Assembly: GCA_040753675.1 (NCBI GenBank)
Contig: JBFMEB010000005.1
Location: forward strand, 2,303-66,302
Direction: 5' to 3'
Source of the DNA: Candidatus Omnitrophota bacterium
Lineage (GTDB): Bacteria > Omnitrophota > Gorgyraeia > JAHJTE01
DNA: 64,000 bases
Shown: positions 17,264 to 28,217 of the stretch, in pieces
Position numbering within the stretch: the stretch's first letter is position 1
Layout: every line of letters begins with the position of its first letter
Notes under the pieces: model-generated
The model's input: the letters and a program-made list of their open reading frames with translations, nothing else
Told to the model about the DNA's origin: nothing
The model's database searches: none
Position numbers and translations under genes: made by a program

Positions 17264-17938
17264 ATGAACAAATTCGATGAATTAAGTTCCACTTATAAGT
17301 CTATATTAGATCACGATGTTAGATTTTCAGGTGAAAATGCCGAATATTTTGCCCTATATAAAGCTGAATATATAAAAAAATACCTCGGCAGTAATTTTAG
17401 AGGCCGCATTTTGGATTATGGGTGCGGCGTGGGCCTTGTTATAAAATTTCTGAGATCTCTTTTTGACAAGAAATATGTAGAAATAATAGGGTTTGATAAT
17501 TCGTTAGCTTCCATAAAACAATGTCGCAACTACATAGAAGGTGCTAGATTTACAAGTAATGATACTGATTTAGAACAAGAATTTTTTGATACAGTAATTA
17601 TGGCTAACGTCCTACATCATATAGATATAGCTGAAAGAGGCAAGATTTTAAAAAAGGCTATCACATTTTTAAAGAAAGGCGGTTATATTTTTATTTTTGA
17701 GCACAATCCTTACAATCCTATAACTAGAATGGTGGTAAAATCATCTCCCATCGATGAGAAGGCATCGCTGGTTAGTGCCAGGGATATTATGAGATTGTTA
17801 CGAAGTCTCTATATTGATATTCATAAAAAACGGTATATAGTATTCTTTCCAAGATTACTTAAAAAACTTAGGTTTCTTGAGCCAATAATGGGCTATATCC
17901 CCATAGGTGCGCAATATGTTTATGTGGGGCAAGTATAG
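17264..17938 (+). CDS. Class I SAM-dependent methyltransferase
   Basis: Motif I ILDYGCGVGL. 224 aa. Confidence 0.75.
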   Translation: MNKFDELSSTYKSILDHDVRFSGENAEYFALYKAEYIKKYLGSNFRGRILDYGCGVGLVIKFLRSLFDKKYVEIIGFDNSLASIKQCRNYIEGARFTSNDTDLEQEFFDTVIMANVLHHIDIAERGKILKKAITFLKKGGYIFIFEHNPYNPITRMVVKSSPIDEKASLVSARDIMRLLRSLYIDIHKKRYIVFFPRLLKKLRFLEPIMGYIPIGAQYVYVGQV

Positions 17939-17980
17939 CAATTCGAGTTAAGTGTTGTACAAAAATATTGGAGAGATGAA

Positions 17981-18427
17981 ATGAAAAAAATGTTGGTTCT
18001 TAATGGGCCAAATCTTAACATGTTCGGTAAGCGGGATCCCTCGTACTACGGTACCATCACCTTAAAGGAAATTAATGAGAAGATCGAGGAATTAGCCCTG
18101 GAACTCGGGTTTGCGGTAGAATGCTTCCAAACAAACCATGAGGGGATAATGGTGGAAAAAATACACGGGATCCGAGAAGAAGATGTTGATGCCCTGATTA
18201 TCAATGCTGGGGCGTGGACCCATTACAGCTACGCCATCATGGATGCTTTGGCTATCATTAAAGTGCCGATCATCGAGGTGCATATGTCTAATATTCACAC
18301 TAGGGAGGTATTTCGGCATTATTCAGTAATTGCGCCGCTGGCGAAGGGGCAAATCACTGGATTCGGGCTGAACAGTTATCTATTGGGCTTGAGAGCTGCA
18401 TGGGATTTGATCAAAGATAATAAATAG
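17981..18427 (+). CDS. aroQ: Type II 3-dehydroquinate dehydratase
   Basis: MLVLNGPNLNMFGKRDP...HMSNIHTRE, canonical type II DHQase, 148 aa. Confidence 0.9.
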   Translation: MKKMLVLNGPNLNMFGKRDPSYYGTITLKEINEKIEELALELGFAVECFQTNHEGIMVEKIHGIREEDVDALIINAGAWTHYSYAIMDALAIIKVPIIEVHMSNIHTREVFRHYSVIAPLAKGQITGFGLNSYLLGLRAAWDLIKDNK

Positions 18428-18490
18428 CACGCGTCATAATGACGTTTAGTTAGATAAATTTTAGTCAATATCAAAAAGAGAAAGGTAGCA

Positions 18491-26085: not shown

Positions 26086-26100
26086 AATGGGGGAAATATC

Positions 26101-26367
26101 ATGAACCCGCTGGAGGAAAGGATATACATATTCATAGTGGATTATCTAAGCAATATTTCGTCTATACCGTATCAAGATAAAAAAAGTATATTACAATACA
26201 GGTATTTGGATGTTGGGCATATTGATTCATTTGGCATTATAAACTTTATTATTACTCTGGAGGATAAGTTTGGTATTTCCTTGACAGCGCAAGATACAGA
26301 GTCGGATGAATTCAGAAGCATCGCAGGTCTCATAAAAACCATTACCAAAAAGCTTGAGAAAAGATGA
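26101..26367 (+). CDS. Acyl carrier protein-like (phosphopantetheine attachment Ser in GHIDSFGIINF)
   Basis: 88 aa, acidic with a four-helix pattern and a DSxx(I/L) motif. Sits next to an acyltransferase-like gene, with the AMP-ligase upstream. Confidence 0.65.
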   Translation: MNPLEERIYIFIVDYLSNISSIPYQDKKSILQYRYLDVGHIDSFGIINFIITLEDKFGISLTAQDTESDEFRSIAGLIKTITKKLEKR

Positions 26368-28217
26368 GGTATGACTATAACGATATTGTTACATCTCTAA
26401 AAAAATCAGGTATTAAGAATGGCGATACTGTTTTCTTTACAGTCGGCCTTGGCATGGTCGGCATTCCGCCAGCAGAAGTTAACACACAGGAAAAACTCAA
26501 TAAACTATTTTTTGGCGCCATCAAAGAAGTTTTAGGAGAGAAAGGTACTATGCTCATTCCTGCTTACTCCTATACTTTCGGCGAAAGTACCATAACAAAT
26601 CTGGCTGTTTTCGACCCACGAACAACTAAGTCACAAATCGGCCCATTTACCAATTTCTTTTTAAAGAGGCCGGGAGTTATTCGTTCCCTTGACCCTATGA
26701 TGTCGATTGCGGGTTTTGGTCCTCGGGCAAAAGAATTCTTAGAAAATCTTCCTCCAACTTCATACGGAGAAGGTTCAACTTTTTCTAGACTTGTCAAAAG
26801 CGATGCAAAATGTTGCAGTATCGGACTTGGTCCCAACTGGGTACCTTTTATCCATTACGCCGAATGGCTTTATCAGGTTCCTTTTCGCTACGACAAGTTT
26901 TTCCACGGAATTATTAGTGTCAATAAAAAAACAAAACCTCTTTCTTATGTATATACTGTAAGGATTCTGGCAAAGGAATCGATTGCTAATGCCCACAAAG
27001 TAGGACGATTGGCAGAGGAAGCCGGTATTTGGCAATGCGCTCTACTTGGCCGAGCCCGCGTCTATACTGCAAACTGTCATAAGTATTTTGATTTTATCTG
27101 TGGTCATTTGGAAAAAGATAAATGGTTATTAGCCACTGGACCTGCTGCAGACCCTTTCAATCTTGAAGAAAAAAGGGTCAGAGCAAAGTTGACTAAAGTG
27201 TCACTCAAAAAATTCGACCCCGGTCCGTGGCTTAAAACTCTTTCTACTTTAAGGCGAGATACTGTTTCAGAGAGTATAGATGCTGTTTTTGACGCAATAG
27301 CTAAACACTTTCCCATTACTTTTAGTTATTGGCCATCGGGTTCTCACTTCTTGGGCTGGATTACTCCGGAAAAATGGCTATGTCACGATGCTCGTATCAC
27401 TACATTAAAAGGTAAGATTATCTTTTCATATGACTCTGAGCCAAATTTTGTCCGCTCCTATTCTAAATCGATTGATAGACAAGTATCCCGCAAAGAGCTG
27501 TTAAGACATATTAATATACGGCCAGATTTTGCTCCGTTTAATTATCGCGACTGGGGGTTTTGCTTGCCAAAGTCTGCCATTAGACGATTAACGCAAAGTC
27601 GTTATAAAGTAAGTATCCAAACTGATTTTTATTATGGAAAAATGAGAACAGCTGAGTTATCTTTAAAAGGAACTAGCGCCAAAACTATCGTTATCGCAAG
27701 CTATTTGGACGGTCCTTACAAAGTCAATGAGTCATTAAGCGGGCTTGTCGTATCTCTATCTCTATATCAGTGGCTAAAAAACAAAGACAGAAATCTTAGC
27801 TATATTTTCCTTTTGCTGGCCGGCGAAGTGGGTTTTGCATCATGGCTATCCAATTATTCTGATAAACTTTGCCAAACAATTGGTATTATACACCTCAAAT
27901 GGCTGGGCCTACCTTTCGAACCAACCCTTTTTAGCTTTAACAATAATGAGAACTCAATCCTCAAGGCCGCTGAATTAGTAATTGGAGAAGATTCGGTAAA
28001 AACTAAATCGTCTTTATTTCTGCAATTTTACGGCACAGATAATCCACTAAAGAAAAGATTCAATACAGACATACCGCAATATATGTTTTCTAAGGTTCAA
28101 TTACCATATAATAAGCTCGAGGACACAAAAACAACCTCCCAAAGCATTGAGGATTCGATCAGTCTTCTTCAAAACCTCATCAAGCGATTGGAGGAAGAAG
28201 GATCTCTATTAGAATGA
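26364..28217 (+). CDS. Fusion: N-terminal AAC(3)-family (aminoglycoside 3-N-acetyltransferase fold, Antibiotic_NAT-like) acyltransferase plus C-terminal DUF2172/DUF4910 aminopeptidase-like (M28-like) domain
   Basis: Residues 1-260 follow the AAC(3) pattern (L..GIKNGDTVFFTVGLGMVG..., GEKGTMLIPAYSY, GPFTNFF, IGLGPNWVPFIHYAEW). Residues about 300-617 are paralogous to ORF 30649-32013 (WITPEKWLCHDARITTLKGKIIFSY vs WIIPEKWTCHEAYLQDLNGKRLFSY; SIQTDFYYG vs LIKTDFSYS). Confidence 0.7.
   Translation: MRYDYNDIVTSLKKSGIKNGDTVFFTVGLGMVGIPPAEVNTQEKLNKLFFGAIKEVLGEKGTMLIPAYSYTFGESTITNLAVFDPRTTKSQIGPFTNFFLKRPGVIRSLDPMMSIAGFGPRAKEFLENLPPTSYGEGSTFSRLVKSDAKCCSIGLGPNWVPFIHYAEWLYQVPFRYDKFFHGIISVNKKTKPLSYVYTVRILAKESIANAHKVGRLAEEAGIWQCALLGRARVYTANCHKYFDFICGHLEKDKWLLATGPAADPFNLEEKRVRAKLTKVSLKKFDPGPWLKTLSTLRRDTVSESIDAVFDAIAKHFPITFSYWPSGSHFLGWITPEKWLCHDARITTLKGKIIFSYDSEPNFVRSYSKSIDRQVSRKELLRHINIRPDFAPFNYRDWGFCLPKSAIRRLTQSRYKVSIQTDFYYGKMRTAELSLKGTSAKTIVIASYLDGPYKVNESLSGLVVSLSLYQWLKNKDRNLSYIFLLLAGEVGFASWLSNYSDKLCQTIGIIHLKWLGLPFEPTLFSFNNNENSILKAAELVIGEDSVKTKSSLFLQFYGTDNPLKKRFNTDIPQYMFSKVQLPYNKLEDTKTTSQSIEDSISLLQNLIKRLEEEGSLLE

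Follow-up and report, generated by a model that had tools for sequence, protein, structure and literature searches.

The question raised by this locus is what an 11-kb block of acylation and radical S-adenosylmethionine (SAM) genes does among the pseudaminic acid (Pse) biosynthesis genes of a Candidatus Omnitrophota bacterium. The block occupies positions 17264-28217 of a 64-kb stretch of contig JBFMEB010000005.1 (the window) and separates pseB, pseC and a cytidylyltransferase gene from the genes for a PseG-like hydrolase, a nonulosonate synthase and a PseH-like acyltransferase. We propose, with moderate confidence, that it is made up of exchangeable tailoring modules that serve the Pse-type pathway of a Wzx-dependent surface glycan. 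Judging from protein families and by analogy with related loci, the block is very probably dedicated to the modification of the nonulosonate, alternative N-acylation included. The genes that a preliminary description of this DNA had listed for the block were all recovered at their positions, tightly packed on the + strand, and their families were confirmed with Pfam and NCBIfam. Together with the genes that flank them, they are as follows.

12080-13054, + strand: PseB, inverting UDP-GlcNAc 4,6-dehydratase (TIGR03589, 488.9 bits, over the cutoff of 407.75)
13056-14207, + strand: PseC aminotransferase (TIGR03588, 494.4 bits, over the cutoff of 423.5)
14204-15190, + strand: GfoA, Gfo/Idh/MocA oxidoreductase (Pfam PF01408/PF22725/PF02894)
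15187-17244, + strand: 'pseF' fusion gene, 685 aa (Pfam CTP_transf_3, 116 bits; Aminotran_3, 173.7 bits)
17264-17938, + strand: class I SAM methyltransferase (Pfam Methyltransf_23/25/11)
17981-18427, + strand: AroQ, type II 3-dehydroquinate dehydratase, first gene of module A (TIGR01088, 187.8 bits, cutoff 169.85)
18491-19513, + strand: NAD(P)H reductase of the ketopantoate reductase fold (KPR-like), module A (Pfam ApbA and ApbA_C)
19531-21111, + strand: adenylate-forming acid ligase, module A (Pfam AMP-binding and AMP-binding_C)
21101-22147, + strand: family 2 glycosyltransferase, GT2 (Pfam PF00535, 106.8 bits)
22205-23464, + strand: radical SAM enzyme, hereafter rSAM (Cys-rich N-terminus, CX3CX2C core, C2185-like_N-type C-terminal domain)
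23445-24961, + strand: B12-binding radical SAM gene, frameshifted (Pfam B12-binding and Radical_SAM; open reading frames (ORFs) 23445-24566 and 24563-24961)
24958-26085, + strand: GfoB, Gfo/Idh/MocA oxidoreductase (Pfam)
26101-26367, + strand: carrier protein of acyl or peptidyl carrier type, 88 aa (weak NCBIfam matches to DltC and acyl carrier proteins)
26364-28217, + strand: AAC(3)+DUF4910/DUF2172 fusion (Pfam PF02522, 109 bits; PF16254, 68.5 bits)
28214-29152, + strand: PseG-like UDP-sugar hydrolase (TIGR03590, 127.3 bits, under the cutoff of 153.55)
29139-30170, + strand: nonulosonate synthase, NeuB/PseI family (Pfam NeuB, 283.8 bits)
30146-30613, + strand: PseH-like GNAT (TIGR03585, 50.9 bits, under the cutoff of 93.1)
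30649-32013, + strand: stand-alone DUF4910-DUF2172-HTH_47 protein of the CA_C2195/Cj1295 family (Pfam 214/95/22 bits)

PseB and PseC reach the equivalog level in NCBIfam. The names PseG, PseI and PseH given earlier agree with the best or near-best matches, but each of these falls under its equivalog cutoff, and the 29139-30170 protein scores higher against the NeuB model (333 bits, cutoff 399.65) than against the PseI model (304.9 bits, cutoff 340.25). The gene described as pseF does carry a CMP-sugar-type cytidylyltransferase domain (residues 1 to about 175), but it is fused to a class III aminotransferase like glutamate-1-semialdehyde aminomutase (residues about 260-685). The fusion protein matches PRK06209 with 441 bits, under the cutoff of 486, and its N-terminal 250 aa gave KdsB-type NCBIfam matches only (61-96 bits, all sub-cutoff) and none to the PseF model at E≤1e-8. 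The earlier inventory was right in the genes that it named but had passed over GfoA, which lies between pseC and 'pseF', overlaps the latter by 4 nt and has UDP-GlcNAc 3-dehydrogenase as its best NCBIfam match (146 bits, sub-cutoff). Homologs of the aminotransferase accompany NeuB in 5/5 of the loci that have them. GfoA and the cytidylyltransferase-aminotransferase fusion together suggest amination of a CMP-nonulosonate.

The stand-alone DUF4910 gene, directly 3' of pseH, belongs to the system of the block. The DUF4910 family was defined on CA_C2195 of Clostridium acetobutylicum (PDB 3K9T), whose neighbourhood, conserved there and in other phyla, contains NeuB/SpsE, the cytidylyltransferase SpsF, aminosugar N-acetyltransferases, a carrier protein, methyltransferases and gene fusions, and for whose family Das et al. 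(2014) proposed sugar modification over proteolysis (PMC4000134). In Campylobacter jejuni, Cj1295 is needed for Pse5(2,3-di-O-methylglyceroyl)7Ac (Hitchen et al., 2010, PMC3068675); it was proposed to remove the N5 acetyl group, and among the genes of that flagellin glycosylation locus Cj1296/7, for an N-acetyltransferase, is listed directly after it (PMC3068675). The stand-alone protein of the window matches 3k9t with E=2.8e-63, and its H209, D215 and H349 align with the Zn ligands. Both metal-binding His residues are kept in 7/7 of its homologs, with the Asp changed to Asn in three. In the DUF4910 domain that is fused to AAC(3), the first His is replaced by Gly and the Asp by Glu, and the region of the third ligand, a His, is absent or replaced; both His ligands are lost in 5/5 fused homologs. 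This fused domain is homologous (68.5 bits) but probably not catalytic. A stand-alone copy is also present in each of the five fusion-bearing loci examined (5/5). We infer that the stand-alone protein may be the catalytic subunit and that the fused pseudo-domain may dock it, which would couple deacylation to re-acylation.

The AAC(3)-fold N-acyltransferase makes up residues 1 to about 270 of the fusion protein. Its score against the AAC_3 equivalog (61.7 bits, cutoff 270) indicates fold-family membership only, and its PDB matches are 7lap, 6mb4 and 6np1. AAC(3) enzymes N-acylate an amine on a six-membered ring. The gene is not regarded as a resistance gene, because it is encoded with a carrier protein inside a glycan locus. 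Its donor is probably an acyl-carrier protein rather than acetyl-CoA. The carrier protein keeps the Ser in HIDSFG, its gene overlaps the AAC(3) gene by 4 nt, and its homologs in two related loci (L017 and L084) score as PP-binding in Pfam.

The following route is envisaged for the block. The pse core would yield (CMP-)Pse5Ac7Ac or a close variant. The stand-alone DUF4910 protein would take off an N-acetyl group, at N5 by analogy with Cj1295; alternatively, a Gfo enzyme and the cytidylyltransferase-fused aminotransferase would make a new amine at C8 or C4. The ligase would adenylate a free acid and load the 88-aa carrier protein, and the AAC(3) domain would move the acyl group to the free amine, with the ligand-less fused DUF4910 serving only as the docking partner of the active paralogue. 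In this genome the acid would probably be polyhydroxylated, carbocyclic and derived from the shikimate pathway, formed by conversion of dehydroquinate to dehydroshikimate (AroQ), KPR-like reduction and possibly methylation. GT2 and rSAM, which are normally one protein, would act on a nucleotide-linked sugar.

In the Pse pathway, the 2-amino group of the hexose becomes N5, and the 4-amino group, which is acylated by PseH, becomes N7. The preliminary description had placed alternative N-acylation or modification either on the UDP-4-amino-altrosamine intermediate or on the final nonulosonate. Modification of the nonulosonate is retained here, but the need to act on the intermediate is not; the PseH-like GNAT is kept, and the block therefore need not replace acylation of the 4-amino intermediate. 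In relatives, a formyltransferase stands in the place of the PseH-like gene. Since the PseH-like gene is kept here and replaced by a formyltransferase there, action of the cassette at N5 or on a new amine is, by analogy, more likely than action on the 4-amino intermediate.

In its most specific form the proposal would give a pseudaminic acid derivative with an amide-linked carbocyclic acid from the shikimate pathway (dehydroshikimate-, shikimate- or quinate-type), delivered on the carrier and installed by AAC(3) docked to a DUF4910 deacetylase, with GT2-rSAM as a new class of nucleotide-sugar radical enzyme; that this whole picture is correct is doubtful. In a bolder variant, the substrate of Gfo, AroQ and KPR might be the ring of the sugar (by oxidation, beta-elimination and reduction), with the ligase activating the carboxylate of the sugar, because the ring of a 4-keto-nonulosonate is a close analogue of 3-dehydroquinate.

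A profile scan for rSAM with one genome per species gave 53 non-redundant loci with a full-length homolog, and genes were counted within 10 kb of it. GT2 was present in 46 of these loci, a B-type Gfo in 36, the ligase in 28, NeuB in 18, the carrier protein in 15 and AAC(3) in 12; homologs of the methyltransferase (17264-17938) were found in 0/53. Among the 24 loci with full flanks, NeuB was present in nine. Loci of Omnitrophota, Planctomycetes, Pseudoalteromonas and Magnetococcus combine the ligase, carrier, AAC(3) and DUF4910 genes with NeuB/pse genes, and pse/NeuB genes surround or adjoin the cassette in the window, in L001, L002, L084, L085, L086 and L087, and in a contig of JGI 3300072015. 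The view that the block is a cassette thus holds in that its modules recur with pse/NeuB genes in several phyla, but not in the sense of one fixed cassette, as the orders differ.

In L002 the order is PseB, PseC, cytidylyltransferase, PseG-like, ligase, GT2, rSAM, Gfo, carrier protein, AAC(3)-DUF4910, DUF4910-HTH, formyltransferase and NeuB. The JGI contig has an unsplit PseB-PseC-cytidylyltransferase-PseG-formyltransferase-NeuB core with the cassette (DUF4910-HTH, Gfo, KPR, ligase, two B12-radical SAM genes, rSAM, GT2, carrier protein and AAC(3)-DUF4910) wholly downstream. In L084 (Pseudoalteromonas sp. SS15), the cassette lies in a flagellin glycosylation island (flagellin, FlaG, FliD, Maf and FliS) that also carries PseB/C and NeuB, is divergent from the pse genes, and has CTP_transf_3 and Aminotran_3 as separate neighbouring genes. 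L086 has an FkbH-type loader and a phosphopantetheinyl transferase in place of the ligase. The preliminary description had taken the position of the block, between the PseC and PseH steps and the PseG and PseI steps, as a sign of where it acts. With the cassette after pseG in L002, divergent in L084 and downstream of the whole core in the JGI contig, its position differs each time, and placement therefore tells nothing of the pathway step; in the window the argument also fails because the last-step cytidylyltransferase precedes the block and the PseH-like gene comes last.

In L085 (Magnetococcus), the cassette adjoins NeuB, and three opposite-strand genes (3437-6234) lie between its stand-alone DUF4910 and AAC(3)-DUF4910 genes. 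They encode a gluconokinase/shikimate-kinase-like protein, a 6-phosphogluconate-dehydrogenase-family protein and an SGL lactonase, and may hint at a sugar-acid donor in the Magnetococcus lineage.

Several points weigh against the reading that we favour. The GT2-rSAM-Gfo-ligase-carrier core is found without NeuB or PseB within 10 kb in 15 of the 24 full-flank loci, and this core may therefore act on a different sugar; occurrence far from pse genes, which the preliminary description had named as telling against its proposal, thus holds in part for this piece of the block. NeuB was not significantly enriched in loci with AAC(3)/DUF4910 (4/6 against 5/18, Fisher p=0.15, a small sample). The site of the CA_C2195 family matches no known peptidase site (Das et al., PMC4000134), and the deacetylase role of DUF4910 comes from genetics and neighbourhoods, not from biochemistry. 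The PDB matches of the ligase are generic (MenE, feruloyl-, fatty-acyl- and oxalyl-CoA ligases) and point to no substrate, and a phosphopantetheinyl transferase was not found in the window. The class III aminotransferase, whose PDB matches include the aminotransferase (AMT) domain of mycosubtilin synthesis, could instead act on a carrier-bound ketoacyl group. Most relatives are without AroQ, which limits a shikimate-derived acid to this genome and L088-L090 at best. The product and every chemical step of the proposed route are read from families and neighbourhoods.

Some of these points agree with another explanation, in which all or most of the block makes a different glycan component and has only its location in a mosaic locus in common with the pse genes. 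One such component would be an amino sugar that is formed by oxidation through Gfo and by transamination, N-acylated from an acyl carrier, and then modified and transferred by GT2-rSAM. Besides the frequent absence of NeuB and PseB from the core loci, the intact DXD motifs of GT2 and the presence of other sugar pathways in the window (a WbpB/E/D-like set at 9294-12038 and an FkbH/carrier module at 43952-47825) fit this explanation. So does L017 (a Methylophilaceae metagenome-assembled genome, MAG), where a compact core operon has no NeuB nearby; there, a 1083-aa fusion of TPR repeats, GT41 (O-GlcNAc-transferase-like) and a DegT aminotransferase (1692-4943) heads an operon that continues with an LbH acyltransferase, ligase, Gfo, carrier protein, GT2-rSAM fusion and methyltransferase. 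However, pse/NeuB genes enclose or adjoin the cassette in the window and seven related loci, the presence of NeuB in 9/24 loci is far above expectation for an unrelated gene, the AAC(3)/DUF4910 pair is independently tied to pseudaminic acid by genetics and neighbourhood, and the block overlaps pseG by 4 nt. A separate component is thus considered rather unlikely, and tailoring of the Pse-type sugar is preferred.

The GT2 and rSAM genes are adjacent in most of the 46 loci that have both and form a single ORF in 28/53; fusions were confirmed by Pfam in L017, L086 and 9/9 sampled representatives of 770-810 aa. The rSAM family comprises 674 clusters at E≤1e-30, and a length of 680 aa or more is reached by 86 of the 150 best representatives. 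In an AlphaFold model of the window protein (pLDDT 92), the core appears like SPASM/twitch enzymes and BlsE, and the C-terminal domain like CA_C2185 and the nucleotide-binding N-domains of VioB-type sugar N-acetyltransferases. A weak NCBIfam match was to NF033640, a family with an N-terminal twitch domain (36 bits, cutoff 170), and a sequence search of the PDB gave no match. Like SPASM/twitch and sugar-modifying radical SAM enzymes (anSME, SkfB, SuiB, BlsE, DesII and AprD4), rSAM has CX3CX2C and extra invariant Cys residues; unlike them, its extra Cys residues are N-terminal, its C-terminal domain is of the CA_C2185/VioB type, and it is usually fused to GT2. The GT2 motifs DDSSTD and LDGDD, read from the translation, are intact, and GT2 therefore probably transfers a sugar. 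The fusion family is a probable nucleotide-sugar enzyme. For the family itself we found no curated family, solved structure or paper, and the literature gave nothing relevant that ties radical SAM enzymes to pseudaminic or nonulosonic acid or to flagellin glycosylation.

GfoB is the most conserved member of the cassette, with homologs in 36/53 loci and 44-50% identity even in Proteobacteria; its closest PDB entry is 3v5n, an uncharacterized oxidoreductase. A B-type Gfo is followed by KPR in L087 and the JGI contig, with AroQ in between in L088, and the order Gfo-AroQ-KPR-ligase is found on three contigs (L088-L090). The KPR-like protein is under the PanE cutoffs (TIGR00745, 83 bits, cutoff 141.35; best subfamily 128.9 bits, cutoff 223) and has a single weak PDB match (3ghy, E=1e-7); by these scores it is a protein of the PanE fold and not PanE. 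Its homologs (69-83% identity) adjoin Gfo, ligase, GT2-rSAM and NeuB genes, and the KPR and rSAM families occur together on at least 11 contigs. These Gfo, KPR and aminotransferase arrangements suggest oxidation of a CMP-sugar followed by transamination or re-reduction, or they may serve acid preparation instead.

AroQ contains the catalytic motifs LNGPNLNMFGKRDPSYYG and EVHMSNIH, which we take to be the NGPNLN..R..Y and HxSN motifs of the type II enzymes, with residue roles as established for these. It has 86% identity to the copy on L088-L090 and 71-79% to Desulfobacterota enzymes, and its GC content at third codon positions (GC3) is 0.537, against about 0.3 for its neighbours. From this foreign GC3, and from the conservation of AroQ together with KPR and ligase, we infer with modest confidence that it supplies an acid derived from the shikimate pathway in this lineage. 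The literature gave nothing relevant on dehydroquinase with nonulosonates, or on legionaminic acid with carrier-protein or AMP-binding genes. In L091 and L092, the neighbours of AroQ (79% identical) are a branched-chain-type ABC transporter and a TIM-barrel protein like xylose isomerase (AP_endonuc_2), with a Gfo oxidoreductase about 2 kb downstream in L091; L092 ends before that point. This arrangement looks like a quinate/cyclitol catabolic set, so that Gfo is paired with AroQ outside glycan loci as well.

AroQ, and perhaps the KPR-like protein, could also belong to primary metabolism (shikimate and pantothenate) and have no part in glycan tailoring, which we judge improbable. Both its score and its motifs make AroQ a canonical type II dehydroquinase, the named homologs closest to it are annotated as type II dehydroquinate dehydratases in Desulfobacterota (one from a complete genome), and trpG/D/C are located 11-13 kb 5' of it. 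Against this, the AroQ-KPR-ligase unit recurs at 81% DNA identity on L088 and Gfo-AroQ-KPR on three contigs, the KPR family is found repeatedly on contigs with rSAM and NeuB and is under the PanE cutoff, and the GC3 of AroQ is atypical for the genome. An upstream gene of the EPSP-synthase (5-enolpyruvylshikimate-3-phosphate synthase) family was considered as AroA and rejected; by NCBIfam it is MurA.

The preliminary description had regarded the 11 kb as one insertion. Instead, at least four segments with different nearest relatives and GC3 were found. The block consists of the methyltransferase, module A (AroQ-KPR-ligase), module B (GT2 and rSAM), a slot C for the B12-radical SAM gene, and module D (Gfo, carrier and AAC(3)/pseudo-DUF4910), with breakpoints at 17973, ~20950, 23460/24964 and 28195. 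Positions 17973-20377, covering AroQ, KPR and most of the ligase, have 81% DNA identity to the metagenome contig L088, and ~20950-23460 and 24964-28195 have 77-84% DNA identity to three Omnitrophota-type contigs (L001-L003). The KPR protein has 83% identity to that of L086 and 76% to that of L087. The ligase has 71-72% identity to L087/L088, and about 50-60% to L001/L002 except for its last ~40 residues. A breakpoint in the middle of the ligase gene at 20011, where a blastn alignment starts, was rejected, as protein comparison by segment places it at about codon 480 (~nt 20950). PseB/C have 50-56%, NeuB 41% and PseG about 40% protein identity to L001/L002, and the stand-alone DUF4910 protein has 29-31% identity to the L001-L003 copies and 63% to that of L086. 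Composition within the block is heterogeneous, with GC3 from 0.27 (GT2 and rSAM) to 0.54 (AroQ).

As the segments differ in nearest relatives, breakpoints and GC3, the block is, on these sequence comparisons, a patchwork, as would be expected after repeated homologous exchange of modules between glycan loci and not after one integration. A tRNA search and an Rfam scan gave nothing at the block ends, the repeat search gave flanking repeats at chance level only, and the Pfam results for the block ends contained no integrase or transposase. Translational coupling joins the block to its flanks, through a gap of only 19 nt on the left and the 4-nt overlap with pseG on the right. Promoter-like sites (64, against 69.9±9.1 expected) and terminator-like sites (15, against 12.9±3.5 expected) are both at shuffle level and neither prove nor disprove a single operon. 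In L087, an IS630-type DDE_3 transposase gene (13062-14186) lies between the rSAM and GT2 genes, which elsewhere are adjacent or fused; mobile elements therefore do visit such cassettes.

That one recent 11-kb foreign cassette entered at its point in the pathway and re-routes the UDP-4-amino-altrosamine intermediate is very improbable. It is true that the block interrupts the pse genes, that parts of it are far closer to other genomes than the pse genes are and that AroQ looks foreign, but this explanation is largely refuted by the mosaic of at least four segments, and marks of integration were not found, the cassette has a different position relative to the pse genes in every relative, the PseH-like gene is kept, and the gene order of the locus is not pathway order.

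Of the two radical SAM enzymes of the preliminary description, both genes are present, but that of the B12-binding type is frameshifted. Both of its domains are present; three-frame translation places the break (24526-24566) between an A7 run (24526-24532) and a T8 run (24557-24564), and the second ORF (24563-24961) continues the HpnJ model. One base added in either run restores the frame, and the junction then aligns with paralogues. A/T runs of at least 8 are common in the window (n=25). Possible explanations of the frameshift are sequencing error, a pseudogene and a tract of variable length. The slot itself is variable, being empty in L002/L003 and occupied by an unrelated B12-radical SAM gene (24% identity) in L001. 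Six B12-binding radical SAM genes were observed in the window (23445-24961, 35936-37420, 39812-41224, 51271-52686, 52693-54114 and 54145-55572), three of them in tandem, and this density in one glycan locus is unusual. It suggests extensive C-methylation or related chemistry on the glycan.

All sizeable ORFs of the window are on the + strand, and the rSAM protein has 100% identity to a protein of a Candidatus Omnitrophota MAG. The 5' part holds housekeeping genes (an ATP-synthase-type NTPase fragment, prfA, prmC, murA and trpG/D/C), and the glycan locus extends from about 7 kb to the end. It contains manC, the WbpB/E/D-like trio, the pse genes, a Wzx flippase, several glycosyltransferases, deacetylases, the six B12-radical SAM genes and a second carrier-protein module. 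Its features outside the block and the pse genes include the following.

9294-12038, + strand: DegT aminotransferase, Gfo oxidoreductase and hexapeptide acyltransferase, directly 5' of pseB
31995-33455, + strand: Wzx-type flippase (Pfam Polysacc_synt)
33481-35355, + strand: GT-B-like protein of 624 aa, directly 3' of the flippase gene (weak Epimerase_2/Capsule_synth matches)
43952-47825, + strand: second carrier-protein acylation module, with GNAT, MaoC dehydratase, short-chain dehydrogenase/reductase (SDR), FkbH-like protein (624 aa) and carrier protein

The trio at 9294-12038, whose Gfo has UDP-GlcNAc 3-dehydrogenase as its best match, resembles a WbpE/WbpB/WbpD-like set for a 2,3-diamino sugar. 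The 33481-35355 protein has sub-cutoff NCBIfam matches to BFO_1060_trans (96 bits) and surf_polysacc ('surface carbohydrate biosynthesis protein', 88 bits) and is a candidate transferase for the finished modified nonulosonate. The second module is similar to genes 5' of the cassette in L001 and L086, and its carrier protein (81 aa, 47580-47825), which was unannotated, has a DSL motif.

In C. jejuni NCTC 11168, we take Cj1295 and Cj1296/7 to lie directly after pseB (Cj1293) and pseC (Cj1294), with pseF/G/H/I further downstream, and Cj1296/7 to be AAC(3)-like and followed by the carrier protein Cj1299, methyltransferases and a HAD/FkbH-type loader. The region Cj1293-Cj1299 shares with the window a DUF4910-family 'aminopeptidase-like' gene and an N-acetyltransferase gene, which have consecutive numbers (PMC3068675). 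By contrast, the presumed loader of the window is an adenylate-forming ligase and not of the FkbH type, which the relative L086 uses; the acyltransferase is fused to a degenerate DUF4910; Gfo, KPR, AroQ, GT2 and radical SAM genes are added; and the product belongs to a Wzx-dependent glycan rather than to flagellin, with no poly-G phase-variation tracts. With CA_C2195 (3K9T), the stand-alone protein shares the same three domains and the three Zn-binding residues, whereas the ligand-less fused paralogue, the GT2-radical SAM pair, the Gfo-KPR-ligase module and AroQ do not feature in the CA_C2195 paper (PMC4000134). With aminoglycoside AAC(3) enzymes, the acyltransferase domain shares the fold family (PF02522).

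ElaA-ElaB-ElaC of Acinetobacter baumannii KL49 and Vibrio vulnificus carry out C8 epimerization of CMP-legionaminic acid; the Gfo-type ElaA oxidizes its C8-OH, and the elaA gene lies beside that of the cytidylyltransferase (PMC13656337). The window likewise has a Gfo/Idh/MocA gene beside the cytidylyltransferase gene, with the 4-nt overlap between GfoA and CTP_transf_3, and may share the logic by which a secondary hydroxyl of a CMP-sugar is oxidized and a second enzyme acts on the ketone. The partner in the window, in contrast, is an aminotransferase domain (GfoA) or a KPR-fold reductase (GfoB type, as in L087, L088 and the JGI contig) and no SDR; the sugar is Pse here and legionaminic acid there, and the likeness to ElaA is drawn from its description and not from its sequence. 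Searches of the PDB with GfoA and GfoB matched only dehydrogenases that are uncharacterized or of the inositol type, and none of the entries bore the name ElaA.

Acyl variation of pseudaminic acid of the Cj1295/CA_C2195 type is thus already known, while the GT2-radical SAM fusion family, the Gfo-(AroQ)-KPR-ligase module and the degenerate DUF4910 fusion are uncharacterized and widespread parts. Nonulosonic acids carry a wide range of N-acyl groups, which shape recognition by phages, immune systems and grazers. To our knowledge, hardly any enzymes that install such groups beyond acetyl and acetamidino have been described. The locus and its relatives form a portable toolkit of a ligase or FkbH loader, a carrier, an AAC(3)-fold transferase, active and degenerate DUF4910 proteins, Gfo, a KPR-fold reductase and GT2-radical SAM, found from Omnitrophota to SAR11, Prochlorococcus, Pseudoalteromonas and Helicobacter. 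The role of DUF4910/Cj1295 becomes testable as that of a deacetylase paired with a transferase, and culturable carriers such as Pseudoalteromonas sp. SS15 open the question to experiment.

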